Shown here: one piece after another, positions 1-56,820 of the stretch
How the letters are laid out: each line of letters opens with the position of its first letter
Numbering within the stretch: position 1 is the stretch's first letter
DNA from: Mobula hypostoma
Taxonomy: Eukaryota
Direction: 5' to 3'
DNA length: 64,000 nt
NCBI RefSeq assembly: GCF_963921235.1
Contig: NC_086097.1
Coordinates: forward strand, 111,106,001 to 111,170,000
Notes under the pieces: generated by a model
Told to the model about the DNA's origin: nothing
Seen by the model: only the letters and a program-made list of their open reading frames with translations
Database searches by the model: none
Made by a program: the position numbers and the translations under genes

Positions 1-217
1 GCCAATCAACTGTCCAGCTCTTGGCTCCATCCCTCCTCCTCCTGTCTTCTCCTATCATTTTGGATCTCCCCCTCCCCCTCCCACTTTCAAATCTCTTACT
101 CGCTCTTCTTTCAGTTAGTCCTGACGAAGGGTTTCGGCCTGAAACGTCGACTGTACCTCTTCCCAGAGATGCTGCTTGGCCTGTTGCGTTCACCAGCAAC
201 TTTGATGTGTGTTGCTT
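1..217 (+). mobile_element. Penelope-like element 3' repeat (runs off the window start)
   Basis: Near-identical to the tail that follows the RT/GIY-YIG ORF at 24085-24476. Confidence 0.9.
117..152 (+). ncRNA. Minimal type-I hammerhead ribozyme motif (Penelope-borne)
   Basis: AGTC CTGACGA AGGGTTTCGGCCT GAAA CGTC GACT. Stem I is AGTC/GACT, with the CUGANGA and GAAA boxes and a GUC cleavage triplet ending at 148. Confidence 0.8.
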
Positions 218-852
218 AGTAATAAACAGATCACACAAAGGAGAGCTGGTGGATGTGTTTACTTGGATTTTCGCAAGGCCACTGACATATGTCCCTCTGA
301 ACCTTGAGGCTGTGTCTCCTAGTTCCAGTCTCACCTACCATGGGGGGGGTTCCAGGCCTGGCTGCAAAAGGAGGTTGTTTAGGCATGAGAGTAGCAACCC
401 CATCCCATAAAAAAAACCAGTGTGACAGAAACATCAGAAGTTCCAAAGACCTCATCCCTCGCAGAGGAAGGATCTTCAAATATGGGCTATACCTTGAAAG
501 GCTGGCTTGGGACAAAGGACTCTGGTGAGTTGCTTTCAGCCTATGGCACAATAGGAGTGACGGGGTGGTGAAGAAGTGACTTTTATACCCTTGACTACCA
601 AAATTCCTAGAGTATTCAGTTTTTTGTATTCCTTTAGCTCTAAGAATACTTCAGCTTAAGAGCTGAAGGATTCTGCAATCGTTTCCAACAAGTGTTTTCT
701 GAACTTTGAATGGTTTGCATCAAATTTTAAGGTTCACAGTTCTCGACTAAATGCTAATTCCATCTAACCTTTTATTAAATGTTAAACACCTCAATTAAAT
801 TATACCTTAATTGCCTTTACTTAAAGGAATCCAAATTGATGCAAGTAGTTAC

Positions 853-927
853 CTCAACTTCATTAACAGCCATATAATTTTGATCAATCTTCGTTGTGCT
901 CCCATTGAAGTCAGTACCTTTCCTGCA
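853..927 (-). CDS. Possible further GOLGA4 exon (75 nt), CRKGTDFNGSTTKIDQNYMAVNEVE
   Basis: TTCTCTAG| acceptor, GAG|GTAACT donor, open phase 0/0, in non-repeat DNA. No convincing protein similarity. Confidence 0.3.
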
Positions 928-2026
928 CTAGAGAATCCAACACAAAATTCCAGATGGGACCTCCAACAATTAATGTTGATGTTTTTGGGGGAAGGGAGGG
1001 GGGTGAACGGTCAGTTAATAGCTCTCACATAGTGCAAACTCTGGGAAGTTTGCACAATGTACCAAACTTCAAGGTCCTTTCAGCCCATCAGTCCAATTAA
1101 ACACAACATATCTGAGGGGTCCTTGTGTAGCCCAGTGAAGCAACAATTTTCGTTATCCCAAAGTAGAGGCCGAGGGTAACAAGGGAGTTAGAATCCAGTT
1201 AATGCTACAAATTCAATTGACACAGCAACTCTATTTACCAAGTCTTGTTCAACGTCTTTCAAAGGGAAAAAATTCTGAGAAAGGATCCAGGACGGAAACA
1301 TTCGCAGTCTTCTTTCCATAGATACCACCTGACCTGCTGAGTATTTCCAGCAACGTCTGTTTTTGTATGAAACAGGATTTTCAAAATGACGTCTTAAAGA
1401 AATGCGGCTAATGTCGATAACTGCTAGGCTGAGGGGCAAGCTTCAGCACTCTAGCGTTCTATAAATAATTGTTAGCATTTACAATTACACTCCTTGACAG
1501 ACATTGTCAATTGGTTTCAATTTAATGTTACATCAGATGTGCTACAGTAAGGCAATGAAATAGTCATTTAATAGCTCAGTCTATCTAAGTTTAATAAAAT
1601 ACACAACATAACCAAGCTCAAGATGTTAACATTAAGTTAGTCTTTGCTTTGATGTATTAATTTATAAAACATGCATTTGTGGATATTATTCACGTCAGCT
1701 GGTATTCAAAAGCAATACCTGGTTAATATTCTACAGCAAACCATATATTGATTATTTAAGGGTTTCATTATTCTGTTGGAGGTAAGAGCTTACAATTCCC
1801 ATATTTGAAGTTCCCATTCTCCAAATCTGAACAGACACTTAAAGCACTATTTGAGTATGTTTGCAAAGTAGACATCAACAATACTTATTGAAACCCCTAG
1901 ATAAACTCAAGGTTCAGTACTAAATGCCTTGGAAAAAAAAATGCAAGCTTCAAGCAACATAATTTTCTCTTCCAAAATGCTTCTCCTACACTACCATGGC
2001 ATTGCTGGTAGGGTGGGAGGACTCAC

Positions 2027-10929: not shown

Positions 10930-13247
10930 CGAGGACCCAAATTTGCTGTGCATAAAATATGGTCTGATCTTCATCTAAGTCTTCAATAACAGACAAACAC
11001 AATCTGCCTAAAATAACACACAAACAATCGTACTTCTTGTCAACATTGAGTACACTATTTAAACTATCACAGTCTAGGTTCAAAAAAGAATGTGAACCTC
11101 TGGGGTAATGCCTTCTACAAAAACTATTTGGAGTCAGGTGTTCCAATCAATCAGATGAGATTGGAGGTATGGGTTGTAGAGGTGCCCTGTCCTATAAAAA
11201 GACACATGAAGTCAGGTTACTGACAGACCCTGCTCTTTTCAAGAAAGATCTGTTTATGTGCACCATGCCTCAATCCAAACAACTTTCAGAGGACCTTAGA
11301 AGAAGAATTGAAGAAATGCATGGAACTGGAAAAGGCTACAAAAGTATTTCTAAAGACCTGAGTGTTCATCAGTCCACAGTAGGAGAAATTGTCTATAAAT
11401 GGAGGAAATCAGTACTGTTGCTAATCTCTCTAGGAGTGGCCGTTCTGCAAAGATCACACCAAGAGCACAACATGCAATGCTGAAGAAGATGAAAAAGAAA
11501 CTGGGGTAACAGCAAAAGACCTGCAGTAGTCTCTAGAACATGCTAGTCTCCAATCATATATCCACTATAAGAAAAACACTGAACAAGAATAGTACGCATA
11601 TAAGGACACCATGGAAGCGACAACTGCTCTCCAAAAATAAACATTGTTACACTTCTCAAGCTTGCAAAAGACCACCTGGATGTTCCACAACACTTCTAGG
11701 ACAATTTTCTGTAGGTAGATGAGACTATATTTGGAGGAAAAAGGGCACAGCACACCAACACCAAATCCTCATCCCAACTGTGAAGCATGGTGAAAGGCCC
11801 TCACACTTCCTCCCTCACTACCATTCAGAGCCCCAGAATTCCTTCCAGGTGAGGCAACACTTCACCTGTGAGTTGGCTGGGGTGATATACTGCGTCCGGT
11901 GCTCCCGATGCTACCTTCCGTATATTGGCAAGATCCAACACAGACTGGGAGATCGTTTCGTTGAACACCTACGCTCTGTCCGCCAGAGAAAGCAGGATCT
12001 CCCGGTGGCCACACATTTTAATTCCACATCCTATTCCCATTCTGATATGTTTATCCACGGCCTCCTCTACTGTAAAGATGAAGCTACACTCAGGTTAAAG
12101 GAACAACACCTTATATTCCATCTGGGTAGTCTCCAACCTGATGGCATGAACACTGACTTCTCAAACTTCCGCTAATGCCCCACCTCCCCCTCGTACCCCA
12201 TCCGTTATTTATTTATTTACACGCATTCTTTCTCTCACTCTCCTTTTTCTCCCTTTGTCCCACTGACTATACCCCTTGCCCATCCTCTGGGATTTCCCCC
12301 CTCCCCCTTTTCTTTCTCGCTAGGCCTCCTGTCCCATAATCCTCTCACATCCCTTTTGCCAATCAACTGTCCAGCTCCTGGCTCCATCTCTCCCCCTCCT
12401 GTCTTCTCCTATCATTTCGGATCTCCACCTCCCCCTTTCAAATCTCTTACTAGCTCTTCTTTCAGTTAGTCCTGACGAAGGGTCTCGGCCCAAAATGTCG
12501 ACTGTACCTCTTCCAAGAGATGCTGCCTGGCCTGCTGTGTTCACCAGCAACTTTGATGTGTGTTGCGTGAAAGGAGCATCATGGTTTCGACGCAAACAAC
12601 ATGGTTTCAAGTTGCTTTGCTGCCTCAGGGCCTGGATAGCTTGCAATCATTGAAGGATCAATGAATTCAAAATTGTATCAAGACATTTTACAGCAGAATG
12701 TCAAGGTAGTGGTCTATCACCTGAAGCTTAATAGAAGCTACAAGACAATGATCCAAAGCTCAAGAGTAAGTCAACAACAGAATGGTTTAAGAAGAAAATG
12801 TGTTCTGGAACAGCCAAGTCAGAGTCCACACCTTAACCCAATTGAGACGCTGTAGCATGACCTGAAAAGAGCTATTCATGCAAGATATCCCAGAAATGTT
12901 GATGAACTGAAACAGTTCAGTATGGAGGAATCGTTTAAAATGCCTCCTCACTGTTGTGCAAGTCTGGTCAGCAGCTACAGGCAATGTTTGGTGGAGGTTA
13001 TTGTTGCTAAAGGAGTTTCTATCAGTTATTAAATAGAAGGATTCACATAATTTTTCCAGCCTGGGCTGTCACTAATTAAATAATGTCTTCAATAAAGTCA
13101 TGAAAATTACAATTGTTTGTGTTATAGTTTAGACAGATTGGTTTGTCTATTATTGTGACTTAGATGAAGATCAGACTACATTTTATGAGTAATTAATGCA
13201 GAACACCAAATAATTGAAAAAGGTTCACTAACTTTTTCTTGAAACTG
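10930..13247 (+). mobile_element. Degenerate Tc1 transposon (second family), split by a Penelope insertion
   Basis: MPQSKQLSEDLRRRI…GYKSISKDL, TVKHG and PSQSPHLNPIE motifs; long inverted ends (~10940-11030 vs ~13110-13200). Confidence 0.85.
11798..12566 (+). mobile_element. 5'-truncated Penelope-like element (GIY-YIG end plus tail; hammerhead mutated GAAA>AAAA at 12468-12503)
   Basis: GVIYCVRCSRC…YIG…RF.EH motif; 8-bp TSD GTGAAAGG (11790-11797 / 12567-12574). Confidence 0.9.
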
Positions 13248-16621: not shown

Positions 16622-17384
16622 TGTTACATACCTCAAGGGTATCTTGTGACTGTCTTATGACCATGATGTAATTGAGTATCTGATGAGCATGATGTACTGG
16701 TCTTGTGGAGGTCACATGATGTAATTTTCCCGCCGATGTGAGGTCACGTGATGACATGTTCTCACCAAGTATATAAGGGGAGACCCCCTGGTGTGACGCA
16801 GTTAACTTTTCCAGTTGAGTTTTAAGTTTAGTTCGTTATTTCATTCGTCAGATACTCCATTATGCTGCGTATTCATCTTATGATGCAGTTTCATTTTAAA
16901 GTGGAATTCTACTTTCTATTGTAAGTAATATTGGAGAGTGAAGACCTTACTAAAGTACAGGAACTCGCAGAGTCGGGTAAAGCTGATATCGTTCAGCGGT
17001 TTCGGAGAGAATCTACCTTTACTGAATCTTCGTTCAAGAAATAGTAACCTGCATGAGATATCCTCTGCTAAAGCAGGAAGGATTGCACAGTGTCTATTCT
17101 CCAGAGGAAAAGGTCAGTTCCTTTAAACCGTATTATTTCTGTCGTCGTGAATCCTGCAGACAAGGCAGGTTCTGGCTGGGATCAGCAGTAACGTCATGAC
17201 TTCGAGGAATTCTTTACTTTAGGAAAGTCTCTCCTAACTGACTGTATAAATCCCTTGGACTTTCGAATTTACCATTCTAAGAACTGTAACAACAGGAATT
17301 CTGCAGATGCTGAAAATTCAAGCAACACACATCAAAGTTGCTGGTGAACGCAGCAGGCCAGGCAGCATCTCTAGGAAGAGGTAC

Positions 17385-17420
17385 AGTCGACGTTTCAGGC
17401 CGAAACCCTTCGTCAGGACG
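17385..17420 (-). ncRNA. Minimal hammerhead motif, intact core, sense to GOLGA4 pre-mRNA
   Basis: Minus strand reads CGTC CTGACGA AGGGTTTCGGCCT GAAA CGTC GACT. Confidence 0.75.
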
Positions 17421-18746
17421 AACTGAAAGAAGAGCTAGTAAGAGATTTGAAAGTGGGAGGGGGAGGGGAGATCCAAAATGATAGGAGAAGACAGGAGGGG
17501 GAGGGATGGAGCCAAGAGCTGGACAGGTGATTGGCAAAGGGAATCTGAGAAGATCATGGGACAGGAGGCCCAGGGAGAAAGACAAGGGGGGGGGGAACCC
17601 AGAGGATGGGCAAGGGGTATAGTCAGAGGGACAGAGGGAGAAAAAGGAGAGTGAGAGAAAGAATGTGTGTATAAAAATAAATAACAGATGGGGTACAAGG
17701 GGGAGGTGGGGCATTAGCGGAAGTTAGACAAGTCAATGTTCATGCCATCAGGTTGGTGGCTACCCAGATGGAATATAAGTGTTTTTCCTCCAACCTGAGT
17801 GTGGCTTCATCTTTACAGTAGAGGAGGCCGTGGATAGACATGTCAGAATGGGAATGGGATGTGGAATTAAAATGTGTGGCCACTGGGAGATCCTGCTTTC
17901 TCTGGCAGACAGAGCGTAGGTGTTCAGCAAAGCAGTCTCCCAGTCTGCGTCGGGTCTTCCACCCCCACCGATGACCCCTTCTCCTGTCTTCAACCTTCCT
18001 CTTCTTCATGGACACCCCGCTCTGGTCTTCTGCCTGCTCTGGATCTCTTTATCGCTAACTGCCGACGGGACATCAACCGTCACGACTTCACCACATCTTG
18101 TTCCCATTCCAACCTCACTCCTTTCGAACGATCTGCTCTCCACTCCCTCCGCACTAATCCTAACCTTACTATTAAACCGGCCGATAAGGGGGGTGCTGTT
18201 GTAGTCTGGCGTACTGACCTCTACCTTGCTGAGGCACAGCGACAACTCGTGGATACCTCCCCTTATTTACCCCTCGATCGTGACCCCACTAAGGAGCACC
18301 AGGCCATTGTCTCCCACACCATCACCGACTATATCCGCTCAGGAGATCTCCCATCCATTGCTACCTTATAGTTCCCACACCTCGCACTTCCCATTTCTAC
18401 CTCCTGCCCAAGATCCACAAACCTGCCTGTCCTGGCAGACCTATTGTCTCAGCTTGCTCCTGCCCCATCGAACTCGTTTCTGCATACCTCGACACGGTTT
18501 TATTCCCCCCTTGTTCAATCCCTCCCTACCTATGTTCATGACACTTCTCACACTCTTAAACTTTTCGATGATTTTAAGTTCCCTGGCCCCCAACGCTTTA
18601 TTTTCACCATGGATGTCCAGTCCCTATATACTTCCATCCCTCACCAGGAAGGACTCAAAGCTCTCCGCTTCTTTTTGGATTCCAGACCTAATCAGTTCCC
18701 CTCTACCACCACTCTGCTCTGTCTAGCGGAGTTAGTCCTTATTCTT

Positions 18747-21700
18747 TCCGGCGCAGACGTAGGCCCGTGACGTAGCGCGCCAAGGTTTAAAAACGGATCG
18801 CCATATACAGCGGCCATCATCAGAGTGGGCTGAGTCAGAGTGGGACGGCTTTGGCTCAAACAGGCTTCGGCAAGAACAGGCAAAGGCCAGGGTAGGTTCC
18901 GGTAAGTTTTTTTGTTCAAACTGTTTAGAGTAGAGAGAATGCCAGGCAGGATGTTGGAATGCTCCTCCTGCAGGATGTGGTAAGTCAGGGTGCCCTCCGG
19001 TGTCCCTGACAACAACACCTGCAAGAAGTGCATCCAGCTGCAGCTCCTAACAAATAGCGTTAGGGAACTGGAGCAGAAGCTGGATGACCTGCGGATTATT
19101 CGGGAGAATGAGGAGATTATAGATAGTAGCTACAGGGAGGTAGTTACGCCAAAGGAGCAGAGGACAGGAAATTGGGTCACTGTCAGGTGAGGGAAGAGGA
19201 AAGGGCAGGCAGAGCAGGGTTCCCCTGTGGCCATTCCCCTCAACAAGTATACCGCATTGGATACTGTTGTGGGGAATGACTTACCTGGGACAAGCTGCAG
19301 TAGCTGGATCTTTGGCACCGAGTCTGGCTCTGCAGTGCAGAAGGGAGGGGGGGAAAAGAGGAGAGCGGTAGTGATAGGGGACTCGATAGTTAGAGGAGCA
19401 GATAGGAGGTTCTGTGGTCGTGACAGAGAATCCAGGATGGTTTGTTGCCTCCCGGGTGCCAGGGTCAAGGATGTCTCTGATCGATTGCATGACATTCTGA
19501 AGTGGCAGGGTGATCAGCCAGATGTCGTGGTGCATATCGGTACCAATGACATAGCAAGGAAGAGTGAGGAGGTCCTGGAGAGTGAGTATAGAAAGCTTTG
19601 TAGGAAGTTGAAAAGCAGGACCTCGAGGGTGGTAATCTCAGGATTGCTACTTGTGCTACATGCCAGTGAGGGGAGGAATAGGATGCTCTGGAGGATGAAC
19701 AAGTGGCTGAGGAACTGGTGTAGGGGGCAGGGTTTCAGATTTCAGGATAATTGGGACCTCTTCTGGGGCAGGTGGGACCTGTGCAAGAGAGACGGGTTAC
19801 ACTTGAACTACAGGGGGACCAATATCCTTTCAGGGAGGTTTGTTAGTGCTATGGGGGAGGCCTTAAACTAGATTTGCAGGGGGATGGGAACCAGAGTGCC
19901 AGAGCTGACAGTGTGGCTGGGGTGAAAATAAATAATGTTAAAAGTTCAAGCAAATCCGCTAACAGAAAGGTTGTGAGTGGTGGTAAAAATCTTCTGAGGT
20001 GTATATACTTCAATGCTAGGAATATTGAGGGGAAGGTGGATGAGTTGAGGGCGTGGATTGACACGTGGAATTATGACGTTATAGCAATTAGTGAAACTTG
20101 GCTACAGGAGGGGCAGAACTGGCAGCTTAATATTCCAGGGTTCCGATGTTTCAGATGTGATCGAGGCAGAGGAATGAAAGGTGGGGGAGTAGCATTGCTT
20201 GTTAGGGAAAATATGACAGCAGTGCTCAGGCAGGACAGATTAGAGGGCTTGTCTACTGAGTCCTTATGGGTGGAGCTGAGAAACAGGAAAGGTATGGCCA
20301 CATTAGTGGGATTGTATTACAGACCATCCAATAGTCAACAAGAATTGGAAGGGCAAATCTGCAGAGAGATAGCAGGCAACTGCAGGAAACATAAAGTTGT
20401 GGTGATAGGGGACTTTAATTTTCCATATATTGATTGGGACTCCCATACTGTTAGGGGTCTAGATGGTTTAGAGTTTGTAAAATGTGTTCAGGAAAGTTTT
20501 CTAAATCAATATATAGAGGAACCAACTAGAAGGGATGCAATATTGGATCTCCTGTTAGAAAATGAGTAAGGACAAGTGACAGAAGTCTGTGTAGGGGAGC
20601 ACTTTAGTTCCAGTGATCATAACACCATTAGTTTCAACTTGATCATGGACAAGGATAGATCTGGTCCAAGGGTTGAGGTTCTTAACTGGAAGAAGGCCAA
20701 ATTTGAAGAAATGAGAAAGGATCTAAAAAGCATGGATTGGAATAGGTTGTTCTCTGGCAAGGATGTGATCGGTAGGTGGGAAGCCTTCAAAGGAGAAATT
20801 TTGAGAGTGCAGAATTTGTATGTTCCTGTCAGGATTAAAGGCAAAGTGAATAGGAATAAGGAACCTTGGTTCTCAAGGGATATTGCAACTCTGATGATGA
20901 AGAAGAGGGAGTTGTATGACATGTACAGGAAGCAGGGAGTAAATAAGGTGCTTGAGGAGTATAAGAAGTGTAAGAAAATACTTAAGAAAGAAATTAGGAG
21001 GGCTAAAAGACTACATGAGGTTGCCTTGGCAGTCAAAGTGAAGGATAATCCAAAGAGCTTTTACAGGTATATTAAGAGCAAAAGGATTGTAAGGGATAAA
21101 ATTGGTCCTCTTGAAGATCAGAGTGGTCGGCTATGTGCGGAACCAAAGGAAATGGGGGAGATCTTAAATAGGTTTTTTGCGTCTGTATTTCCTAAGGAAA
21201 CTGGCATGAAGTCGATGGAATAAAGGGAAACAAGTAGTGAGATCATGGAAACTGAAAAGATCGAAAAGGAGGAGGTCCTTGCTGTCTTGAGGAAAATTAA
21301 AGTGGATAAATCCCCGGGACCTGACAGGGTGTTCCCTCGGACCTTGTAGGAGACTAGTGTTGAAATTGCAGGGGCCCTGGCAGAAATATTTAAAATGTCG
21401 CTGTCTACAGGTGAGGTGCCAGAGGATTGGAGAGTGGCTCATGTTGTTCCGTTGTTTAAAAAAGGATCGAAAAGTAATCCGGGAAATTATAGGCCAGTAA
21501 GTTTAACGTCGGTAGTAGGCAAGTTATTGGAGGGAGTACTAAGAGACAGAATCTACAAGCATTTGGATAGACAGGGACTTATTAGGGAGAGTCAACATGG
21601 CTTTGTGCGTGGTAGGTCATGTTTGACCAATCTATAGGAGTTTTTCGAGGAGGTTACCAGGAAAGTGGATGAAGGGAAGGCAGTGGATATTGTCTACACG

Positions 21701-22865: not shown

Positions 22866-24378
22866 TTCTTAATAATTTCTCCTTTGGCTCCTCCCACTTC
22901 CTCCAAACTAAAGGTGTAGCTATGGGCACCCGTATGGCTCCTAGCTATGCCTGCCTTTTTGTTGGCTTTGTGGAACAATCTATGTTCCGTACCTATTCTG
23001 GTATCTGTTCCCCACTTTTCCTTCGCTACTGCATTGGTGCTGCTTCCTGCACGCATGCTGAGCTCGTTGACTTTCTTAACTTTGCCTCCAATTTCCACCC
23101 TGCCCTCAAGTTTACCTGGTCCATTTCCAACACCTCCCTCCCCTTTCTAGATCTTTCTGTCTCTATCTCTGGAGACAGCTTATCCACTGATGTCTACTAT
23201 AAGCCTACTGACTCTCACAGCTATCTGGACTATTCCTCTTCTCACCCTGTCTCTTGCAAAAATGCCATCCTCTTCTCGCAATTATTCCGTCTCTGCCGCA
23301 TATGCTCTCAGGATGAGGCTTTTCATTCCAGGACGAGGGAGATGTCCTCCTTTTTTAAAGAAAGGGGCTTCCCTTCCTCCACCATCAACTCTGCTCTCAA
23401 ACGCATTTCCCCCCCCCTTCACGCACATCTGCTCTCACTCCATCCTCCTGCCACCCCACTAGGAATAGGGTTCCCCTGGTCCTCACCTACCACCCCACCA
23501 GCCTCCGGGTCCAACGTATTATTCTCCATAACTTCCGCCACCTCCAATGGGATCCCACCACTAAGCACATCTTTCCCTCCCCCCGCCTCTGCTTTCCGCA
23601 GGGATCACTCCCTATGTGACTACCTTGTCCATTCATCCCCCCCATCCCTCCCCACTGATCTCCCTCCTGGCACTTATCCTTGTAAGCGGAACAAGTGCTA
23701 CACATGCCCTTACACTTCCTCCCTTACCACCATTCAGGGCCTCAGACAGTCCTTCCAGGTGAGGCGACACTTCACCTGTGAGTCGGCTGGGGTGATATAC
23801 TGCGTCCAGTGCTCCCGATGTGGCCTTCTATATATTGGCGAGACCCGACACAGACTAGGAGACCGCTTTGCTGAACACCTACGCTCTGTCTGTCAGAGAA
23901 AGCAGGATCTCCCAGTGGCCATACATTTTAATTCCACATCTCATTCCCATTCTGACATGTCTATCCACGACCTCCTCTACTGTAAAGATGAAGCCACACT
24001 CAGGTTGGAGGAACAACACCTTATATTCCGTCTGGGTAGCCTCCAACCTGATGGTATGAATATTGACTTCCCCAACTTCCACTAATGCCCCACCTCCCCC
24101 TCGTACCCCATCCTTTATCTTTATACACACATTCTTTCTCTCACTCTCCTTTTTCTCCCTCTGTCCCTCTCACTATACCCCTTGCTCATCCTCTGGGTTC
24201 CCCCCCCCCGCCTTGTCTTTCTCCCTGGGTCTCCTGTCCCATGATCCTCTCATATCCCCTTTGCCAATCACCCGTCCAGCTCTTGGCTCCATCCCGCCCC
24301 CTCCTGTCTTCTCCTATCATTTTGGATCTCCCCCTCCCCCTCCCACTTTCAAACATCTTACTAACTCTTCCTTCAGTT

Positions 24379-24414
24379 AGTCCTGACGAAGGGTCTTGGC
24401 CTGAAACGTCAACT
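24379..24414 (+). ncRNA. Minimal hammerhead motif, core intact, stem I mismatch
   Basis: AGTC CTGACGA AGGGTCTTGGCCT GAAA CGTC AACT. Confidence 0.65.
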
Positions 24415-24818
24415 GTACCTCTTCCTAGAGATGCTGCCTGGCCTGCTGCGTTCACCAGCAACTTTGATGTGTGTTGATTCTAAGAACTGTGTTCGAATTT
24501 ACCACTTTAAGAACTGTTTTCACATTTACCCTTTTAAGAACTGTTCCAGAGTTGCCGAATAGCAGTTAACTTCCAGTTAAATTAGTCGTTTGAATATTTT
24601 TCAATATTGTTTGGCAGAGTTTAATAAATGTTTGTTTGTTTTTATAAAACCTGACTCAATTCGATATTCATTGTTGCCGGTCACGTGACATAACTTAGGG
24701 GCTCATAAGGATTGTTCCAATTTTGAGCCTAAGTGCTTGTTTAATTATCAATCTGATTTGGAAAAGGGAAATACGCAATTCTTTTGTTTGATTGGTCTGT
24801 GGGTAGTATTCAGCAGCA

Positions 24819-31387: not shown

Positions 31388-31611
31388 ACAACAGGAATTC
31401 TGCAGATGCTGGAAATTCAAGCAACACACATCAAAGTTGCTGGTGAACGCAGCAGGCCAGGCAGCATCTCTAGGAAGAGGCACAGTCAACGTTTCAGGCT
31501 GAGACCCTTCGTCAGGACTCCACGAAGGGTCTCGGCCTGAAACGTCGGCTGTGCCTCTTCCTAGAGATGCTGCCTGGCCTGCTGCGTTCACCAGCAACTT
31601 TGATGTGTGTT
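31388..31611. mobile_element. ~224-bp palindromic miniature Penelope (two inverted tails; complete hammerhead at 31519-31484 on minus)
   Basis: Arms ~31420-31512 and ~31522-31613 are reverse complements. Flanked by GCT(A)8TAGT and GCT(A)7TAGT. Confidence 0.85.
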
Positions 31612-31984
31612 GCTAAAAAAATAGTGTAGTGGGCAGGAATTCAGATTAGTTTATCACTGGAATCTCTCCCAGGGCAGAGATTACACCTTTACTCTTTTGT
31701 TACACCTGAACAAAAGAGAACCAATATTGTGGTAATATTTGGTGGTGCTACAAGGGTGGGTTTAAATGAGATTTTCTATGGTGGTGTGATCCCATGCATC
31801 AGGAAGGTAAATGAGGCGGGTGACGTTACCTGGTTCAGGAGCTTGATGGTTATAGGGTAATGACTCTTTCAGAGGCACATGGCTGAAAGGAAATGGAGAG
31901 CTCTGTCGGAGTAGGTTAAAGGGTAGGCACAACACTGTGGGCTGTACTATTCTGTGTTTTTGACCAACACTTCATTCCTCAGAG

Positions 31985-32529: not shown

Positions 32530-33856
32530 CGTAAACACGAGGAAATCTGCAGATGCTGGAATTTCAAGCAACACACATCAAAATTGCTGGTGAACGCAGC
32601 AGGCCAGGCAGCATCTCTAGGAAGAGGTACAGTCGACGTTTTGGGCTGAGACCCTTCATCAGGACTAACTGAAAGAAGATAGAGTAAGAGATTTGAAAGT
32701 GGGAGGGGGAAGGGGAGATCCAAAATGATAGGAGAAGACAGGAGGGGGAGGGATGGAGCTAAGAGCTGGAAAGTTGATTGGCAAAAGGAATATGAGAGGA
32801 TCATGGGACAGGAGGCCTAGCGAGAAAGAAAGTGGGAGGGGGGAAGTCCAGAGGATGGGCAAAGAGTATGGTGAGAGGGACAGAGGGAGAAAAAGGAGAG
32901 AGAGAGAAAGAATGTGTGTATATAAATAAATAACGGATGGGGTACGAGGGGGAGGTGGGGCATTAGCGGAAGTTTGAGAAGTCAATGTTCATGCCATCAG
33001 GTTGGAGGCTACCCAGACGGAATACAAGGTGTTGTTCCTCCAACCCGAGTGTGGCTTCATCTTTACAGTAGAGGAGGCCGTGGATAGACATATCAGTATG
33101 GGAATGGGATGTGGAATTAAAATGTGTGGCCACCGGGAGATCCTGCTTTCTCCGGCGGACAGAGCGTAGGTGTTCAGCAAAGTGGTCTCCCAGTCTGCAT
33201 CGGGTCTCGCCAATATATAGAAGGCCACATCGGGAGCACCGGATGCAGTACATCACCCCAGCCGACTCACAGGTGAAGTGTCGCCTCACCTGGAAAGACT
33301 GTATGGGGCTCTGAATGGTAGTGAGGGAGGAAGTGTAAGGGCATGTGTAGCACTTGTTCCGCTTACAAGGATAAGTGCCAGGAGGGAGATCAGTGGGGAG
33401 GGATGGGGGGGGAATGAATGGACAAGGGAGTCACGTAGGGAGCGATCCCTGCGGAAAGCGGGGGAGGGGAGGGAAAGATGTGCTTCGTGGTGGGATCCCT
33501 TTGGAGGTGGCGGAAGTTACAGAGAATTATATGTTGGACCTGGAGGCTGGTGGGGTGGTAGGTGAGGACAAGGGGAACCCTATTCCTAGTGGGGTGGCGG
33601 GAGGATGGAGTGAGAGCAGATGTGCATGATATGGGGGAGATGCGTTTGAGAACAGAGTTGATGGTGGAGGAAGGGAAGCCCCTTTCTCTAAAAAAGGAGG
33701 ACATCTCCCTCGTCCTGGAATGAAAAGCCTCATTCTGAGAGCAGATGCGGCGGAGATGGAGGAATTGCGAGAAGGGGATGGCATTTTTGCAAGAGACAGG
33801 GTGAGAAGAGGAATAGTCCAGATAGCTGTGAGAGTCAGTAGGCTTATAGTAGACAC
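32530..33856 (-). mobile_element. 5'-truncated Penelope-like element (RT C-terminus, GIY-YIG, tail; hammerhead 32666-32631 with GAAA>AAAA)
   Basis: YYKPTDSHSYL and GVMYCIRC…YIGET motifs; 9-bp TSD ATGGGACTA (32521-32529 / 33857-33865) inside a CR1 3' end. Confidence 0.92.
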
Positions 33857-36192: not shown

Positions 36193-37074
36193 CAGCATCT
36201 CTAGGAAGAGGTACAGTCGACGTTTCAGGCCGAGACCCTTCGTCAGGGACTAACTGAAGGAAGAGTTAGTAAGAGATTTGAAAGTGGGAAGGAGAGGGGG
36301 AGATCCAAAATGATAGGAGAAGACAGGAGGGGGAGGGATGGAGCCAAGAGCTGGACAGGTGATTGGCAAAGGGGATACGAGAGGATCATGGGACAGGAGG
36401 TCCGGTAAGAAAGACGGGGGGGGGGAGAACCCAGAGGATGGGCAAAGGGTATAGTCAGAGGAACAGAGGGAGAAAAAGGAGAGTGAGAGAAAAAATGTGT
36501 GTATAAAAATAAATAACAGATGGGGTACGAGGGGGAGGTGGGTCCTCTACTGTAAAGATGAAGCCACACTCAGGTTGGAGGAACAACACCTTATACTCCA
36601 TCTGGGTAGCCTCCAACCTGATGGCATGAACATCGACTTCTCTAACTTCCGCTAATGCCCCACCTCCCCCTCGTACCCCATCTATTATTTATTTTTATAC
36701 ATTCTTTCTCTCACTCTCCTTTTTCTCCCTCTGTCCCTCTGACTATACCCATTGCCCATCCTCTGGGTTCCCCCCCTCCCTTGCCTTTCTTCCCAGACCT
36801 CCTGTCCCATGATCCTCTCGTATCCCTTTTGCCAATCAGCTGTCCAGCTCTTGGCTCCATCCCTCCCCCTCCTGTCTTCTCTTATCATTTTGGATCTCCC
36901 CCTCCCACTTTCAAATCTCTTACTAGCTCTTCTTTCAGTTCGTCCTGACGAAGGGTTTCGGCCTGAAACGTCGACTGTACCTCTTCCTAGAGATGCTGCA
37001 TGGCCTGCTGCGTTCACCAGCAACTTTGATGTGTGTTGCTTGAATTTCCAGCATCTGCAGAATTCCTGTTGTTG
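36193..37074. mobile_element. Inverted-arm Penelope insertion (minus arm to ~36542, plus arm ~36543-37074) with two intact hammerhead cores
   Basis: Hammerheads at 36251-36215 (minus) and 36941-36976 (plus); imperfect 14-bp TSD GCTGGTAGATCCTG/GCTGATAGAGCCTG. Confidence 0.88.
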
Positions 37075-41229: not shown

Positions 41230-42160
41230 CATTGAGCAGGAGCTATAAGAGAGTCTCCACAACTTATGCAATCTACAACAAGATCCTACCTCCAAACACA
41301 TCTTTACCTCCCCTCCCCCCCCACCACTATCTGCTTCCCATAGAGATTGCTTCCTCCTTGTCCATTCGTCACTCCCTAATAATGTCCCTCCTGGCATTTA
41401 TTCCTGTCAGTGACAAAATTGCTATACTTGCCCTTTCACCTCCTCCCTCACTTGCTCCAAACAGTCCTTCAATGCGAGGCAACACTTTACCTATGAATCT
41501 GTTGGGACCACCTGCTGTATCCAGTGCTCCTTATGTGGACTCCTCTACATTGGTGAGACCAAACATAGATTGGTGGACTGCTTTGTCGACTGCTCCTCAT
41601 CTGCAAGAAGAGGGATTTCCCGGTGCCTAACCATTTTATTTCCTATCCCCGTTCCCATTCTGATTTGTTGGCCAGTGGCCTCCTCTTCTGCCACTATAAG
41701 AGCACTCTCAGGTTAGAGGAACAACACCTCATATTCTGTCCTGGTAGCCCCCAACATTGATTTCTACAGCTTCAATTAATTCCCCCCCCCCACCTTCCCA
41801 GTTCTTCATTTCCCTACTCTGGCCTCTTTGCCTTTTCTGCTCAACTACCTATCACCTCCCCCTGGTGCCATTCCTCCTTCTCTTTCTCCCATGGTCTACT
41901 TTCCTATCAGATTCCTTCTTCTCCAGCCCTTTACCTTTCCCACCTATCACCTCCCAGCTTCTTATTTAATTCCCCCTCCCCCACTCACCTGGCTTCACGT
42001 ATCACCTTAGCTTGCCCTCCTTCCCCTCCCCCACCTTCTTATTCTGGCATCTTCCCCCTTCCTTTCCAGGCCTGGTGAAGGGTTAAAACTTGAAAATTCA
42101 ACTTTATATTCATCTCCATAGATGCTGCCTGGCCTGCTGAGTTCTTCCAACATTTTGTGT
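41230..42160 (+). mobile_element. Older diverged Penelope fragment with eroded hammerhead
   Basis: Colinear with 23520-24476; core eroded to CTGGTGA…GAAAATTC at ~42072-42099. Confidence 0.75.
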
Positions 42161-42694: not shown

Positions 42695-43680
42695 GTGGGG
42701 AAAGGGAGGGGAGTACAAGCTGGCAGGTGATAGGTGAAACCAGGCTGGTGAGGTTGGGGATGGTGTGGAAGCTAGTGAAGGGAGGGTGGGGAATGAAATG
42801 AAAAGCTGAAACATGGTAAGTGGAAGAGACAAAGGTCTGAAGAATCTGATAGGAGAAGACTTTAGACTATGGAATGTAAGGAATGGAGGTGATAAACCAG
42901 ATGAAGGTTAAGGTGATAAGCATGTTTTGTGAGGATGGCAAAAGGGAAGGAGAATGGGTGGAGAAGCCTGAGGAACAAAAGGAAGTGAATTGTGGGGGAC
43001 AGGCAGGGGGTGGGGGGGTGGGGGGATGGGGACAGGGGGGAATGGAAATCAGCACTGAGCCCATCAGGTTGGAGTGGAATCATATCTGCATCTGGCCTCA
43101 GTGTGGCAGTAGAGGAAGCTGTGGACAGACATGTCACAGTGGGAATGGGAAGTGAAATTAAAACAGTTGGCCTCTGGGAGATCCTGGCTGTTGAGGTGGA
43201 AGGATTGAAGATTATCAACAAAGCAGTCTCACAGTCTGCATTGGGTCTCCCCGATATAGAGACTGCACCAGAAGGACCAAATTCATATATGAAGTGCTGC
43301 CTTATCTGGAAGGATTGTTTAGGCTCCTGAATGGGGAAGAGGGGCAGGTGTGAAACTTTGCAGGTTTGCAGGGATAAATGCTTGAAGATGGATCAGTGCG
43401 GAAGGACAAGCAGACAAGGAGATCACTGAGGGAGTAATCCCAGAGGAAAGCAGAGAGGGGTGGGGAGGGAAGGGGAAGATATGCCTGGTGGTGGCAAAGG
43501 TTGTGGAGAATGATGTGTTGGATACGGAGGCTAGTTAGGTGGTAGATGAGGATAAGGGGACTCCTATCTTTGTTATGTCAGAGGGGACATGGGGTCAGGG
43601 CAAATGTATAGGAAATTGAGGAGATACAAATGAGGTCTGCATTGATAGCAGTGTAAGGAAAACCCATTTTTTGTAAAGAG
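42695..43680 (-). mobile_element. Older diverged Penelope fragment
   Basis: Colinear with the minus-strand copy at 32700-33700. Confidence 0.7.
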
Positions 43681-45966: not shown

Positions 45967-46459
45967 TCAAAGATGAAGCCACACTCAGGTTGGAGGAAAA
46001 ACACTTATATTCCATCTGGGTAGCCTCCAACCTGATGGCATGAACATCGACTTCTCTAACTTCCGCTAATGCCCCACCTCCCCCTTGTACCCCATATATT
46101 ATTTATTTTTATACACACATTCTTTCTCTCACTCTCCTTTTTCTCCCTCTGTCCCTCTGACTATACCCCTTGCCCATCCTCTGGGTTCCCCCCCCCCCAT
46201 CTTTCTCCCTGGGCCTCCTGTCCCATGATCTTCTCATATCCCCTTTGCCAATCACCCGTCCAGCTCTTGGCTCCATCCCTCCCCCTCCTGTCTTCTCCTA
46301 TCATTTTGGATCTCCCCCCTCCCCCTCCCACTTTCAAATCTCTTACTAACTCTTCCTTCAGTTAGTCCTGACGAAGGGTCTCGGCCTGAAACATCGACTG
46401 TACCTCTTCCTAGAGATGCTGCCTGGCCTGCTGCGTTCACCAGCAACTTTGATGTGTGT
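45967..46459 (+). mobile_element. Short Penelope 3' fragment (hammerhead 46364-46399 with GAAACATC variant)
   Basis: Near-identical to 23984-24473. Confidence 0.9.
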
Positions 46460-46799: not shown

Positions 46800-48820
46800 T
46801 ATCACAATCAGGTATGTATGTCATGAAATTTCTGTTTTGTGGCAGCAGCACAGTGCAAGACATAAATATTACTGTAAGTTACAATAAATAAATAGATAAT
46901 GCAAAAGAAGAATAGCAAGTACTCTTCAAGGGGTCATGGACAATTCAGAAATATGATAGCAGAGGAGAAGAAGCCATTGCTGAAATATTGCCTTGGGTCT
47001 TCAGATCCTGTAGCTCCTTCCTGTTGGTAGTAATGAGAAGAGAGCATGTCCTGGATGGGGAGGGTCCATAATGATGGATGTTACCTTCTTAAGGCACCAA
47101 CCCTTGAAGATGTCCTTTATGGTGGCGAGGATCGTGATGGAGCTATCTGAGTCTACAACCCTCTGTAGTATCTTTCAAACCTGCAATTTGGAGCCTCAAT
47201 AACAAACAGTGATACAACTGTCAGAATGCCCTCCCATGGTACATCTGTAGAAATTTGCCAGAGTCTTTGGTGACAAACCAAATCTCCTCAAACTCCTATT
47301 GAAGTACAGTATTTGTCTTCTTTGTGATTGCATCAATATACTAGGCCAAGGGTAGATCTCTGAAATGCTGATACCCAGGAACTTGAAGATGATCACATTT
47401 TCCACTGCTCACCCGTCAATGAGGTCTTGACTTCATATTCCTAAAGTCCACAATCAATTCCTTGGTCTTACTTACATTGAGTGCAAGGTTGTTCTTGTGA
47501 TTTCACTCAGCCAGCTGATCTCACACTCCTGTATGCCACCTCATTGTCATTTGAGGTTCTGCCAATAACAGTGGTGTCACCAGTGATCTCATAGATGGTG
47601 TTTGAGCTATGCCTAGCCACACACGCATGTAGAGTGGAGCAGAGCAGTGGGTTAAACTCGGATCCTTGAGGTGTGCCTGTGTTGTTTGTCAGTGATGAGG
47701 AGATACTATTACTGATCCACCCTGACTATGGTCTCCTTATGAGGAAGTCAATGATTCAGCTGCAGAGGGAGAGTCCTAGGTTTTGAAACTTGTTGATCAG
47801 TAGTGAGGGGATGATGCTTGAGAATACGGACCTGTCATCATTAAACAGCAACCTGCGCTACATTTTAATATTGTCCAGCCGGATGGAGAGCCAGTGAGAT
47901 TCCATCCATGGCAGACCTGTTGTCAACTTGCGGCAGGTCCAGGTCCTCGCTCAGGCAGGAGTTAATTCTAGCCATAAGCAAACTCTCAAAGCACTTCACA
48001 GCAGATGTGACAACTACACTCTCCAGCTACCCTCTTGCTTTAGATGTACTGTATGCTCGAGGATTCCCTGCAATCTGACCTACCAGGAGTTTCTCATGGC
48101 CCATCTGGGCTCTCCTAATTCCATTCCTGAGTTCTTCTCTAGTTTCTTTATAATCTGTAAGAGCACAGTTTGATTTTAGCTTCCTAAACCTTACGTACTT
48201 TTTCATCTCGACTAAATTCAATTCCACTTGATATTCAAGGTTCCCATACCTTGCTGGCATATAAAGACAGGAATCAAAGGGTTGAACATGGTGGGACTAA
48301 TGTTTTGAGTTGTGTCCATTTTTCAATGCAAGGAGTATTGTATGAAAGGCTTCGAGACCTTGGCCTCAATACCTCATTATACAATTAGATCCTCAATTTC
48401 CTCACTTGCAGGCCCCAGTCAGTTCAGATTGGCAAAAACATCACCTCCACAATCTCCATCAGCACAGGTGCACCCCAAGGCTGTGTGCTTAGTCCCTGCT
48501 CTATTCTTACGCGTACGAATATGTGACCAGGCACAGATCCAATGCCATACTTAAGTTTGCTGTTAACATCAATGTCATTGGGCATATCAAAGGTGGACAA
48601 TCTCTCACTCATTGTCAACAACCTCTCACTCAATATCAGCAAGGAGCTGATGATTGACTTCAGGAGGGAGGAAACCAAGGTCCATGAGTCAGTCCTCTTT
48701 AGGGGATCAGAGGTGGAGAGGGTCAGCAACTTTAAATTTCTTGGTGTTATCATTTCAGGGGATCTATTCTGGGCCCACTATGCATCTACAATTAAAAAGA
48801 GAACTGGGCAGCACCTCTAC
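46800..48820. mobile_element. Rex1/Babar-type LINE fragments (minus ~46800-47990, plus ~48330-48820)
   Basis: FKFLGISIS, ELMIDFRR and TGAPQGCVL motifs. Confidence 0.75.
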
Positions 48821-49310
48821 TGATCCATGCCCACCACAGCATTCTCCCCGTCCGCCAGCCCAGCTGATCCGTGCTGACCACAGTATCTCCCTGTCCGCCA
48901 GCCCAGCTGATCCGTGCTGACCACAGTATCTCCCTGTCCGCCAGCCCAGCTGATCCGTGCTGACCACAGTATCACCCTGTCCGCCAGCCCAGCTGATCCA
49001 TGCTGACCACAGTATCTCCCTGTCCACCAGCCCAGCTGATCCATGCCGACCACAGTATCTCCCTGTCCGCCAGCCCAGCTGATCCGTGCCCACCACAGCA
49101 TTCTCCCTGTCCGTCAGCCCAGCTGATCCGTGCCCACCACAGCATCTCCCCGTCCACCAGCCCAGCTGATCCGTGCCCACCACAGCATCTCCCTGTCCGC
49201 CAGCCCAGCTGATCCGTGCCCACTACAGCATCTCCCTGTCCGCCAGCCCAGCTGATCTGTGCCCACCACAGCATCTCCCTGTCCGCCAGCCCAGCTGATC
49301 CGTGCCCACC
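48820..49310 (+). repeat. Minisatellite, 43-bp unit, ~11.4 copies
   Basis: Unit CTGATCCGTGCCCACCACAGCATCTCCCTGTCCGCCAGCCCAG; spacing 48865 to 48908 is 43 bp. Confidence 0.95.
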
Positions 49311-50429
49311 AGGTATCCACATTCATACCATAATTCTCCAAGCTCTTCCCCTCCATGAACCTATCCACATGCCTTTTAAATGTTAAAATTGTGTCCAACT
49401 CATTCCAGGTTCTCACTGCTCTCTGTGTGAAGCAGTTACTTCTCAGGTCTTCTTTAAATTTCTCTGCTCTAACCTTGAATCTTTCCCTCCGGCTTTCGAG
49501 CTCCCTAATCCTGGGAAAAACAGTGTGACCATCCACCTTATACTCCAAAAGTGCGGTCTTACCAATAATTTGAGTGTACACTAATTATTTTCCCAAATTG
49601 CCAATTTCTCTCTAGAATGTACGCACCTCATATCTAGAATGTCTAACACCTTAAAGACAAGAAATTCTGCGGAGTTGGAAATCAAAAGTAATACATATGA
49701 TATTCTGGGGGAACTCAGCAGGTTAGGCAGCCTCTATGGAAATGAACAGTCAACACTTCAGGCCGAGACCTTGCTCCGGGACTAGAAAGAAAGAGAGAAG
49801 CCAAAATAAAAAGCTGTGGGAGAGGACTAACACCTTAACCAGGAATCCGTATGGTCAGTGTGGATTCTGGTGCTTTCTCACTCACTACTATTAACCCCAA
49901 AGGAAAGAAATAACACAAACTTAATATACAGTAAGACAGATCAAAAGACATTTCTTTCCTCAGAACCTTCATCAATAAATGTAAAACTTAAACAGCTAAT
50001 TTCCACAGTGAAAAAGAATTCCAAAGATTGATGGAAAAGACAAGAAGAACAATGAAGCCCAACACCATCACACACTCACACGAACTCTTAACGCCACTCT
50101 GCTTCTGAAATGCAAGAGCTCCTGGAAAAGAGCAAAATGTTTCAAATGGCCACACTCTAATCCTCTAGAGAACAGGATTCATTAAAATATCCTTCAAACG
50201 CAGAGTTCATCAACATAATAACTTTGTAATCACTCGTTCACTCATGCATGTCCTCTCGCTCCTCATGTACATCAAAGTAAACTTAAATTGCCATACCTCG
50301 TGAAATATCTTAAAACTCACAGGTTATTCAACAATTCAATGAACCCACACTCAACGATTCAGCAAAAGCTTCTTTTCCCCCATCATCAGATTTTTCAATG
50401 TTCCATGAATGCATCCTTCTTAATCCTTT

Positions 50430-52992: not shown

Positions 52993-54628
52993 GAGTACAT
53001 AAAAAAGGTATTCATCCCCTTGGAAGTTTTCATGTTTTATTGTTTTACAGCATTGAATTACAGTGGATTTACTTTGGCTTTTTTGACACTGATCAACAGA
53101 AAAGATTTTTTCTGTCAAAGTGAAAGCAAATTTCTACAAATTAAACACAAAATAATTGATAGCATAATTACTCACCCCTTTCAAGTCAGTATTTAGTAGA
53201 TGCACCTTTGGCAGAAATTATAGCCTTGAGTCTATGTGGTCAGGTCTCTATCAGCTTTGCACATCTGGACACTGCAAATTTTCCCCATTCTTCTTTACAA
53301 AACTGCTCAAGCTCAGTCAGATTGCATGGGGATTGTAAGAGAACAACCCTTTTCGAGTTCTGCCACAAATTCTCAATTGGATTGAGGTCAAGAATCTGAC
53401 TTAGCCACTACAGGACATTAATTTTGTTGTTTTTAAGCCATTTCTGTGCTAGCTTTGGCTTTATTGTTGGGGTCATTGTCTTGCTGGAAAACACATCTTT
53501 TCCCAAATCGCAGTTCTCTTGCAGACTGCATCAGGCTTTCCTCCAGGATTTCCCTGTATTTTACTGCAGTCATTTTACCCCCTACCTTCGCAAACCTTCC
53601 AGGGCCTGCTGCAGTGAAGCATCCCCACAGCATGATACAGCCACCACCATGTTTCATGGCAGGGATGGTGAGTTTTTGATGTGCGGTGTTTGGCTTACGT
53701 TAAAAATAGCATTTAGTCTGGTGGCCAAAAAGCTCAATTTTGGTTTCATCAGACCATAGAATCTTCTTCCAACTAATTTCAGAGACTCCACATACCTTCT
53801 GGCAAACTCTAGCTGAGAGTTCATGTTTTTTTCAACAGTGGCTTTCTCTTTGCCTCTTTCCATAAAGCTGCGACTGGTGAAGCACCCGGGCAACAGCTGT
53901 TGTATGCATAATCTCTCCCATCTCAACCACTGAAGCTTGTAACTCCTTTAGAGTTGTCATAGGTCTCTTGGTGGCCTCCCTCACGAGTCCTCTTCTTGCA
54001 CGGTCACTCAGTTTTTGAGGACAGCCTGCTCTAGGCAGATTTGCAGCTGTGCCATATTCTTTCCATTTCTTGATGATTGACTTAACTGTACTCCAAGGGA
54101 TTTTCAGTGACTTGGAAATTTTCTTGTATCCATCTTCTGACTTGTGCTTTTCAATAACCTCTTTGCAGAGTTGCTTGGAGCATTCTTCTGTTTTCATGGT
54201 GTAGTTTTTGCCAGGATACTGATTCACCAGCAGTTGGACCTTCCAGATACAGGTGTATTTTTACTACAATCAGTTGAAACACCTTGACTGCACACAGGTC
54301 TCCAAAAACAGATCTCCATTTAACTATTAATTAAGTGACTTCTAACACCAGTTGACTGCACCAGTGATGATTTGGTGTCATATTAAAGGGGGTGAATACT
54401 AATGCAGTAAATTATTTTGTGTTTTATATTTGTAATTAATTTTGATCACTTTGTAGAGGTCTGTTTTCACTTTAACATGAAAGAGTCTAATTAATTTAGA
54501 TAACTTTGATACAAGAGAGTCTTTTTCTGTTGATCAGTGTCAATAAAAGCCAAATTAAATCCTCTATGATTCAATATTGCAAAACATGAAAACTTACAAG
54601 GGAGGGTGAATGCTTTTTATAGGCACTG
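52993..54628 (-). mobile_element. Complete, decayed Tc1 transposon with long TIRs
   Basis: TA flanks on both sides, splitting the Gypsy integrase codons HPA|TNG. Transposase motifs GYKKISKSL, KHGGGCIMLWGCF, FQQDNDP and LNPIENLW. Confidence 0.92.
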
Positions 54629-56546
54629 TAGCTGGGTGGCACAGTACAGATGTAATATGTCTTATTCCATTCATTTTCAGAAATGACTGAAACTGTTCCA
54701 CAACAAACTGTGGTCTCTTGTCACTGACTAAGTGTTCTGGAATACAACACTTTCATTTTAACCACACCTCGATGGTGTAGCTCCTCCAACACTTTAGCTT
54801 TTATAGGTATTTTCTTTTCCAAGGGTAAATGGGACAATCCATCAGCATTTCTATGATTAGTTGTCATCATGAATTCAGTCTTGGAACTGTGACCTCCAAG
54901 AAACAGAACTCATCCATGCATTCATGCTGCGGTTGTTAGTGGAACAAATTTCTGCGGATTGAAAATGGACGCTAGTGGCTGATGAACAGTAACAGTGGTT
55001 GATGAGCATAACTCCTCTCCCATACAAGTACTTGTTGAAACTTTTTACACCCCAAACCGAACTCAAGGCCACTCTGTCAATCTGTGCAGGATTTTTCTCT
55101 GCAGCAGCAATGGAACGTATACAAAGGCTATGGGGCATTCACTTCCATCAGTCATACATGCGGCATGACTGCACCTATACCATAAGGCAAGGTGACACAG
55201 GCACGTTTCACTGCACGATGTGGTTCATAATGTGTGAGTACAGTGTCTGACATCACCATTTCCTTTACCTTTCTGAAACCCACCTCACACTGCTTTGTCC
55301 ATTGCCATTTATTCCCATTCTGTAGTAATGAGTTCAAGGGGTGGAGCACATTAGTCAGGTTTGGCAGGAACCTGTAATAACAATTGACAAGTCAAAAAAG
55401 GACCACAACTGTAACACTTACTTTGATCTTGGGGCCACTGCTTAAATTTTCTCAGCACACTTGTGTAATCTTTGTACATCAATGGTGTGACCACAGTAAG
55501 TGATGCTTGGTTTAAAGAATTCACACTTGTTGCATTGTGCTCTAAACCCATAATCTTCTAACTTTTTTAACACTGCTTTGAGATTGTAGAGATGTTCCTT
55601 GTCAGCCTTACAGGCAACAATGATGTCATCTAAATAATACTGAGTGCCAGGTCAGCTTTGCAGCATCTGGTCCATAGCTTTCTGCCAGAGTGCAGGTGCA
55701 GAAGCTACTCCAAAATATAAGCCTGTTATAGTGATAAAGCCCTTTGTGTGTGTATAGTGTGGAACACTTTGGACTCTCTTCCATCTCCATCTGTAGGTAG
55801 GCCTCAGCTAGGTGCACTTTGCTGAAATACTTCCCTCCAGAAAAGTTTGCAAAGATATCTTCTATCCTGGGCTCCACCTAAACTTGGAAAGAATTCCTTC
55901 AGCCTCCATGCACTCGAGCTCAGTGGCAACTTTATCATGATTGTACAAGGAAACAGACAGGCTTTGTAAAACTTGGGTGTGGCATTTTCATTTAACACTA
56001 TTTTTCCCTTGATATTTTTGAGTTTTCCGATGGCAACGTTGATCACTGCTGTGGCATCATCCAGTACCTTTCTTAATTTGCTTTCAGTTGACTATTGCAG
56101 GGGATGTAGTATGCAAATAATGGATGGATCTCCACTAAAGTTGCAGCTGTCACAGTTACTCATGGCCCCACAAGACTGGCTCTCCCGATTTTACCACATA
56201 CAAGCCCAATGTAGCTTGTTGGTTTCTATATTTCACTGTTACAAATGTCATTCCATAGGAGCTATCTTTTCTCTAGTTTAAGTTCTCAATTGGATATCTG
56301 CAGGCTTCAGTTCAGTGTCTTTGAAATGCCGTTCAAGCTCATTTTGTGGAATGGCTGAAACAGATCTGCTGGTGTCCAATTCCAGTTTTATTAATTTGTC
56401 ATTCACTCTGGTGTAAGTCATATTATTTATCTTTATTTTTGTGTGCCTGATATGCTCTTTGTATATGCCCTACTTTGTTGCATTTTCTGTAAGGTTCACC
56501 CTTATACCTACATTGGTTTGGTGTATGTGAGCCACTGCCACAAAGG

Positions 56547-56820
56547 CCTCCCTAGGCCTCCTGTCCCATGATCCTCTCCCTTCTTCAGCCTTGTATCCCT
56601 TTTGCCAATCAACTTTCCAGCTCTTAGCTCTATCCTTCCCCCTCCTGTCTTCTCCTATCATTTCAGATCTCCCCCTCCCCCTCCCCCTCCCACTTTCAAA
56701 TCTCTTACAATCACTTCTTTTTGTTAGTCCTGACGAAGGGTCTCGGCCCGAAACTTCGACAGTGCTTCTTCCTATGGATGCTGTCTGGCATGCTGCGTTC
56801 CACCCGCATTTTGTGTGTGT
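56547..56820 (+). mobile_element. Penelope tail of a sister subfamily (hammerhead 56726-56761, GAAACTTC variant)
   Basis: 11-bp TSD TGCCACAAAGG (56536-56546 / 56821-56831). Confidence 0.85.

Follow-up and report, generated by a model that had tools for sequence, protein, structure and literature searches.

Minimal type I hammerhead ribozymes (min-HHRs) have been defined as motifs that lack helix III and loop 3, are palindromic at positions 15.2/16.2, and carry a base between positions 9 and 10.1; they lie behind a pyrimidine-rich 5' flank in the pseudo-long terminal repeats (pLTRs) of Penelope-like elements (PLEs), mostly as solo copies and with close opposite-strand pairs (PMC4209133). In that report, a schistosome motif failed to cleave as a monomer and cut weakly as dimers and trimers. 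PLE-linked hammerheads with a short stem III are likewise summarized as cleaving as dimers (PMC6765202), as we propose below. The motif of PAc, the Poseidon element of Anolis carolinensis, needed protein in order to cleave, and insertion in vitro did not depend on it (Frangieh et al. 2024, PMC11167929); the role of the hammerhead in PLEs is described as still open (PMC8557442). We analyzed 64,000 nucleotides from the cartilaginous fish Mobula hypostoma (GCF_963921235.1, contig NC_086097.1, positions 111,106,001 to 111,170,000, forward strand; the whole stretch is called the window here), for which an original prediction had proposed a family of type I hammerheads without helix III carried by a Penelope-like element. 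That proposal is borne out. The window holds a known min-HHR in the pLTR of a young PLE, and we consider it likely that this motif cleaves only as swapped pairs, weakly and with protein help, and that its genomic copies stem from uncut RNA.

Judged by its sequence, the motif is a min-HHR and shares all of the traits just listed. It runs from stem I through CUGANGA, an extra A, a 4-bp stem II, GAAA, C15.2, G16.2, U16.1, and C17 back to stem I, with no helix III or loop 3 and with a palindrome at 15.2/16.2. The CUGANGA and GAAA boxes and the NUH site are the majority form in 40 young and 26 older copies alike, and the extra base between 9 and 10.1 is A in 10 of 10 element families. The 36-nucleotide design had been called extreme; it is the standard one, because PMC4209133 defines the min-HHR as exactly that form. 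The Acropora row of its Fig. S3 has the same lengths as the ray motif, and several of the relatives found here are equal in length or one base shorter. GAAA-C-G-U-H occurs in 7 of the 11 vertebrate rows of that figure, none of which is chondrichthyan. The ray motif thus differs from those rows in its host, and it also has a short 4-bp stem II and, in most young copies, G-U at 10.1-11.1 (30 of 40, with G-C in the other 10; older copies have T in 13 and C in 11, with CpG decay). G10.1-C11.1 is reported to be highly conserved but not absolute in min-HHRs, and G-U also appears in some of the published rows (PMC4209133). The motif falls outside the Rfam canonical type I definition (an intramolecular helix III and a model match), and a scan of the window against Rfam at E values up to 5 gave no hammerhead match. 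The Rfam MIR408 match at 36508-36694 was rejected as the inverted junction at 36542/36543, and a sequence search of the PDB returned 0 matches.

The motif is extremely abundant. A genome-wide scan, as suggested in the original prediction, found 60,737 exact matches to a 28-letter pattern in the 3.48-Gb genome and 0 to the reversed pattern; this count of at least 60,737 compares with about 4,000 copies in coelacanth and about 9,000 in Xenopus (PMC4209133). A structural descriptor applied to 116 stretches (1,214,000 bases, window included) gave 44 matches, against 0 for the reversed descriptor and 1, 0, and 0 for block shuffles; 31 of the 44 keep the ACGT palindrome, and 11 more carry CpG-type changes of it. 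Most genomic copies are dead passengers, decaying at CpG sites. Within the window, the anticipated 10 or so copies are all present, with the motif found at 11 of 11 listed positions (minus-strand numbers give the low coordinate). Only 4 of the 11 (117+, 17385-, 31484-, and 36941+) are intact when core, palindrome, NUH, and closing stem I pair must all be present; the other 7 are damaged or truncated. The copy at 24379+ passes on 3 of 4 stem I pairs but was scored as failed on the closing one. The copies at 31484- and 31522+ belong to a single head-to-head insertion, one in each arm, with a target duplication of about 14 bp, and further decayed copies lie near 42080, 49750, and 62290.

The host is a young, very abundant PLE that carries the motif in its pLTR on the sense strand. 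Its single open reading frame (ORF) of 1,043 codons contains a reverse transcriptase (RT) together with a GIY-YIG endonuclease (EN) at the C terminus that has CCHH; these motifs are visible in the translation, and the Pfam scores for RVT_1 (E = 1e-4) and GIY-YIG (E = 1e-3) are under the curated cut-offs. Among aligned relatives, RVT_1 was found in 22 of 22 and GIY-YIG in 18 of 22, and a Pfam search of the broken frames of the window returned 0 families. A CX4CX2C linker lies between RT and EN, which would place the element in the Neptune/Nematis type by the CX2-5CxxC linker criterion of PMC8557442. Bamboo shark supplies the closest named proteins (73% and 69% identity), consistent with a cartilaginous fish host. 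Among 20 loci chosen for long frames, three (L087, L088, and L095) carry a pair of whole motifs, separated by about 3.5 kb, on either side of a frame of at least 1,043 codons, and a fourth (L093) has three motifs in tandem, placing the motif in both pLTRs. Partial tandems, an inverted arm, and an optional 30- to 40-bp tail were all seen. The element resembles the EN-containing (EN+) Neptune/Nematis PLEs of Craig et al. 2021 (PMC8557442) in its linker, C-terminal GIY-YIG, partial tandems, inverted 5'-truncated arm, and one-end tail; it seems to differ in the pile-up of 5' ends and inversion joints at motif base 1 described below. On the 3' side, copies stop at either of two sites, roughly +97 to +101 or +130 to +140, counted from motif base 1 (+1, the first base of stem I). 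In PMC11167929, the PLE tail is linked to two internal RT start sites, and PAc and the ray element have in common that the motif lies close to the junction of pLTR and ORF, that 3' ends favor two positions some 35 bases from each other, that no ends mark the cut site, and that uncut RNA is the likely template. The frame opens about 90 bases past the motif start here but inside the motif in PAc, the zinc-finger linker is present here, unlike in PAc, and the ray element is known from sequence alone.

Non-LTR retrozymes, reported for one chondrichthyan species in a study that searched canonical and minimal hammerhead models (bioRxiv 10.64898/2026.07.22.740005), are the other close comparison in cartilaginous fish, as they too carry type I hammerheads related to those of PLE pLTRs. 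They are short, non-coding tandem repeats, whereas the copies described here are ends of an autonomous element. A retrozyme identity was rejected: what the window holds are ends, truncated or inverted, of a coding element, and the tandems seen are 3.5-kb coding units, although no genome-wide search was aimed at short tandems.

Comparison between related families supports the fold. Covariation among the copies of the ray genome was not usable, the copies decaying at CpG, and the covariation analysis of stems I and II that had been suggested was run on related families instead, drawn from metagenome contigs of more distant relatives (loci at 29 to 62% protein identity). In 80 related-element loci, the descriptor found 25 matches in 20 loci, with 1 match for the reversed control and 0 to 2 for the shuffled ones; 22 of the 25 lack helix III, and 17 of these 22 are palindromic though the descriptor did not require it. 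A 10-family alignment was assembled by eye from window copy 117 and 9 of the 22 matches, one per family, omitting duplicates and five non-palindromic copies of one family. It has 97% paired cells and 30 two-sided changes, a level reached in 0 of 500 shuffles. Two-sided changes occur, with the descriptor's bias, in 4 of 4 stem I pairs and 3 of 4 stem II pairs, and the 15.2-16.2 palindrome itself varies as CG in seven families, GC in two, and AT in one. The 13 invariant columns are all core or core-adjacent, most of them fixed by the descriptor. The compensatory changes in both stems and the palindrome of nine related families thus lend support to the predicted dimer fold. We give next to no credence to the idea that the hammerhead look is an accident, with a conserved pLTR stretch happening to match the descriptor. 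The absence of an Rfam hammerhead match, the lack of covariation among copies of the ray genome, and a weak fold in context would all suit it, but the same core, spacing, and place recur with compensatory stems in nine related families when controls give 0 to 2 matches, and the 10-family alignment already contradicts it.

In the mechanism that we propose, two motifs, borne by the same tandem transcript or by separate RNAs, would swap strands, with ACGU pairing to ACGU as helix III. Both stems I would then be intermolecular, and the predicted cut, by analogy with published relatives, would fall after GUC (position 148 of the window). The ACGU palindrome had been proposed as the whole dimer interface; it is the predicted helix III interface, but in the swapped dimer the two stems I would be part of the interface as well. 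A single motif is predicted to form an inactive rod, and the best monomer fold (-10 kcal/mol) pairs the core GACG with CGUC, hiding both core and palindrome. Cleavage would probably occur only on strand swap between two copies, weakly and with the help of protein, and genomic copies would most likely be reverse transcribed from RNA that was not cut. Small PLE hammerhead variants are reportedly able to cleave as dimers, a finding attributed to Lünse, Weinberg, and Breaker in 2016. The modeled fold energies agree with low activity.

The positions at which copies begin bear on this. The genome-wide start count took copies in which both native upstream pyrimidines were replaced by purines. Starts at +1 numbered 2,137 of 82,252 (2.6%), 6.5-fold over -27 and often in head-to-head pairs, with a pattern that admits older copies too. 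At the predicted cut (+33), there was no genome-wide excess of 5' starts over -27 (339 of 90,865, or 0.37%, versus 203 of 50,520, or 0.40%; P = 0.42). We also examined 64 young copies, selected by nothing but sequence on the 3' side of the motif, of which 24 begin within -14 to +15 and 0 within +16 to +38; 14 copies scored as starting at -149 reflect a subfamily difference and were counted as continuing. With inverted pairs counted once and three copies starting past +39 excluded, 16 of 24 start events fall in 30 of 188 bases (P = 4e-8). All 8 of 8 inverted pairs join one tailed arm with one untailed arm. The counts thus show no clear cleavage footprint but a strong stop at the motif's front edge, and because starts pile up there and not at the predicted cut, genomic copies are likely to come from uncut RNA.

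Efficient cutting in vivo would instead yield unit-length RNA that is circularized, and intact-motif copies would arise from reverse transcription around the circle, a model proposed in PMC4209133. Partial tandems and one triple tandem exist, as that model expects, and a religated circle leaves no 5' end at the cut, so that the missing footprint is compatible with it. Inspection of 32 starts at +33 showed 26 inversions, 3 internal changes, and 3 flank-only starts, and 9 of the 32 are joined to an arm ending at +1, which could also speak for circles. However, all nine junctions share a 4-base stem I microhomology and fit the snap-back of a cDNA that had ended at +1, and +33 shows no surplus of flank-only starts (3 of 32, against 3 of 20 at +37 and 7 of 20 at +25; the proportion at +1 is 6 of 12). 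As the stop at +1 is left unexplained by a circle and folding disfavors the active dimer, we regard this route as quite improbable. In several copies with +1 starts (L198, L202, and L046), a few bases repeating core positions +7 to +11 precede the start, the pattern expected had a cDNA that ended at +1 re-primed on the AG at +12/+13.

Several observations weigh against weak cleavage by swapped pairs of a selected ribozyme. Within the genome, the majority motifs of 40 young and 26 older copies agree at all but two places while both flanks differ; yet +51 to +98 is as conserved as the core (0.96 versus 0.97 in young copies, 0.89 versus 0.89 in older ones), and for this reason conservation within the genome does not single out catalysis. 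The stem pairing of the 10-family alignment is partly built in by the descriptor, though the palindrome is not; 5 of the 22 relatives' matches are non-palindromic, of which two share the AGGT form and lie in a single locus; and 10.1-11.1 is G-U in 30 of 40 young copies versus G-C in all nine other families. By nearest-neighbor energies, which ignore core tertiary contacts, the swapped dimer reaches -9.5 kcal/mol versus -20 for two rod monomers. It is also surpassed by a GUCGAC duplex across the cut (-15.3 versus -9.5 kcal/mol), and in a 140-base context the pair probability of stems I and II is only about 0.12 (z = -0.4). Finally, starts at the cut are 1.4 to 1.6 times the raw counts at +25 (247) and +37 (206), neither of which has a separate denominator (the one for +37 is at least 90,865), so a weak cut footprint may exist. 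As a separate observation, stem I is GUC/GAC, so a second palindrome, GUCGAC, straddles the predicted cut (window 146-151) and may form a rival inactive duplex.

The front-edge stop could be the start of the transcript, or it may be a block at a 3' splice-site-like signal just upstream. Both fit a reading in which the motif persists chiefly as an RNA boundary or dimerization element (transcript start, splice acceptor, or protein-binding site) and hardly cuts in vivo: RNA would start or be blocked at stem I base 1, and RT from the tail sites would run off there, giving copies of about 100 to 135 bases and head-to-head pairs. The clustering of young starts and the tailed-untailed composition of every inverted pair are what this reading expects. 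The +1 context matches the initiator consensus in both the young and the older subfamilies, and in three long copies, L086, L098, and L089, the sequence begins at +16, +11, and +53, respectively. For one donor-like site, some 600 bases upstream, a search for spliced copies gave 28 pattern matches; none of the 6 inspected had element sequence upstream. The stretch at 24358-24378 resembles the 3' splice-site consensus. In most young copies, TACTAAC and a pyrimidine tract are followed by a CAG that ends two bases before stem I; in older copies, tract and CAG overlap stem I; and the starts of 3 of the 64 young copies lie between -13 and -11, immediately 3' of the putative branch A. The intron of Drosophila virilis Penelope ends at helix I (PMC4209133), and its transcript start lies 46 bases before the intron (PMC2377424). 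The dispensability of the Anolis motif in vitro (PMC11167929) also favors a boundary role, but published relatives do cleave (PMC4209133, PMC11167929), and the restriction of 13 of 13 invariant columns to core or core-adjacent positions is what selected chemistry predicts, even if the descriptor fixed most of them. On balance, we find it unlikely that the motif is mainly such an element. We also offer a more specific scheme, tentatively and with little expectation that it holds. The first base of the hammerhead would mark the 5' end of the reverse-transcribed RNA; a dimeric RT would start at the two tail sites on two uncut RNAs joined via the hammerhead dimer interface, extend both nicked strands, run off at stem I, and join the cDNAs head to head, making the min-HHR a signal for RNA dimerization and boundary. 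If this were true, tens of thousands of genomic copies would record that dimeric RT reaction. Contigs from two sequencing runs of uncertain kind have loose ends before +2 and behind both tail sites; contigs cannot show RNA ends, and these were not used as evidence.

What is new is the host lineage and the unusually high copy number; the finding adds no more than these because the motif class, dimer logic, and weak activity had already been published. Our literature search, which did not extend to subscription papers, found no paper on a PLE hammerhead of a shark or ray and none on a pile-up of 5' ends at a hammerhead front edge. The family is a useful test bed in that tens of thousands of young insertions let cDNA ends be counted. 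That these ends mark the motif's front edge and not its cut agrees with the one in vitro system (PMC11167929), and the pile-up yields a concrete, testable prediction of the RNA 5' end.

Table 1. Hammerhead motifs and parts of the host PLE in the window
Positions	Strand	Feature	Basis
117..152	+	Min-HHR motif, intact; predicted cut after 148	sequence
12468..12503	+	Decayed motif; GAAA and palindrome lost	sequence
17385..17420	-	Intact motif in inverted tail-bearing arm 17288-17957	sequence
17955..18746	+	5'-truncated RT part of host PLE, joined head to head with arm 17288-17957	
22867..24479	+	Remainder of PLE begun at 17955 (RT thumb, linker, GIY-YIG, 3' pLTR); resumes past unrelated LINE insertion	
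24358..24378	+	Branch-point-like TACTAAC, pyrimidine tract, and CAG before stem I; 3' splice-site-like	sequence
24379..24414	+	Motif about 290 bases past ORF stop; closing stem I pair broken (C-A)	sequence
31388..31519	-	Long tailed arm (motif base 1 to +132) of head-to-head insertion; intact motif 31484-31519	
31522..31614	+	Short untailed arm (motif base 8 to +100), partner of 31388..31519; truncated motif 31522-31550	
32631..32666	-	Decayed motif (GAAA to AAAA) within copy 32534-33853	
36215..36251	-	Motif with one-base insertion at stem I, in inverted arm 36192-36546	
36941..36976	+	Intact motif within copy 36543-37073	
37041..37073	+	Optional PLE tail of about 33 bases (+101 to +133), in some copies only	
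46364..46399	+	Motif; palindrome lost through CpG change	
56726..56761	+	Motif with lost palindrome and G-C at 10.1-11.1; its copy is more diverged (80% to reference)	

Other variants of the motif and its hosts were seen in passing. Loci L124, L036, and L151 belong to a further subfamily with the same core, another stem II loop, and another 3' flank. Near 42080, the decayed motif of one copy shows AATT instead of ACGT, and 41254-42144 and 43107-43677 represent more distant Penelope-like families (66 to 69% DNA identity to the reference). In the metagenome set, minus-strand loci L290, L300, and L338 share a non-palindromic hammerhead-like descriptor match, which may be chance in a repeat. The Penelope-like copy 17955-24479 is interrupted at 19191-22411 by a LINE-like element with endonuclease- and RT-like frames, which we take from its motifs to be CR1-like. 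A broken Gypsy-like LTR retrotransposon occupies 25498-29381, with an integrase-like frame that precedes the RT-like frame, presumably the order of Gmr1-type elements, and a tandem repeat with units of about 43 bases lies at 48820-49311.

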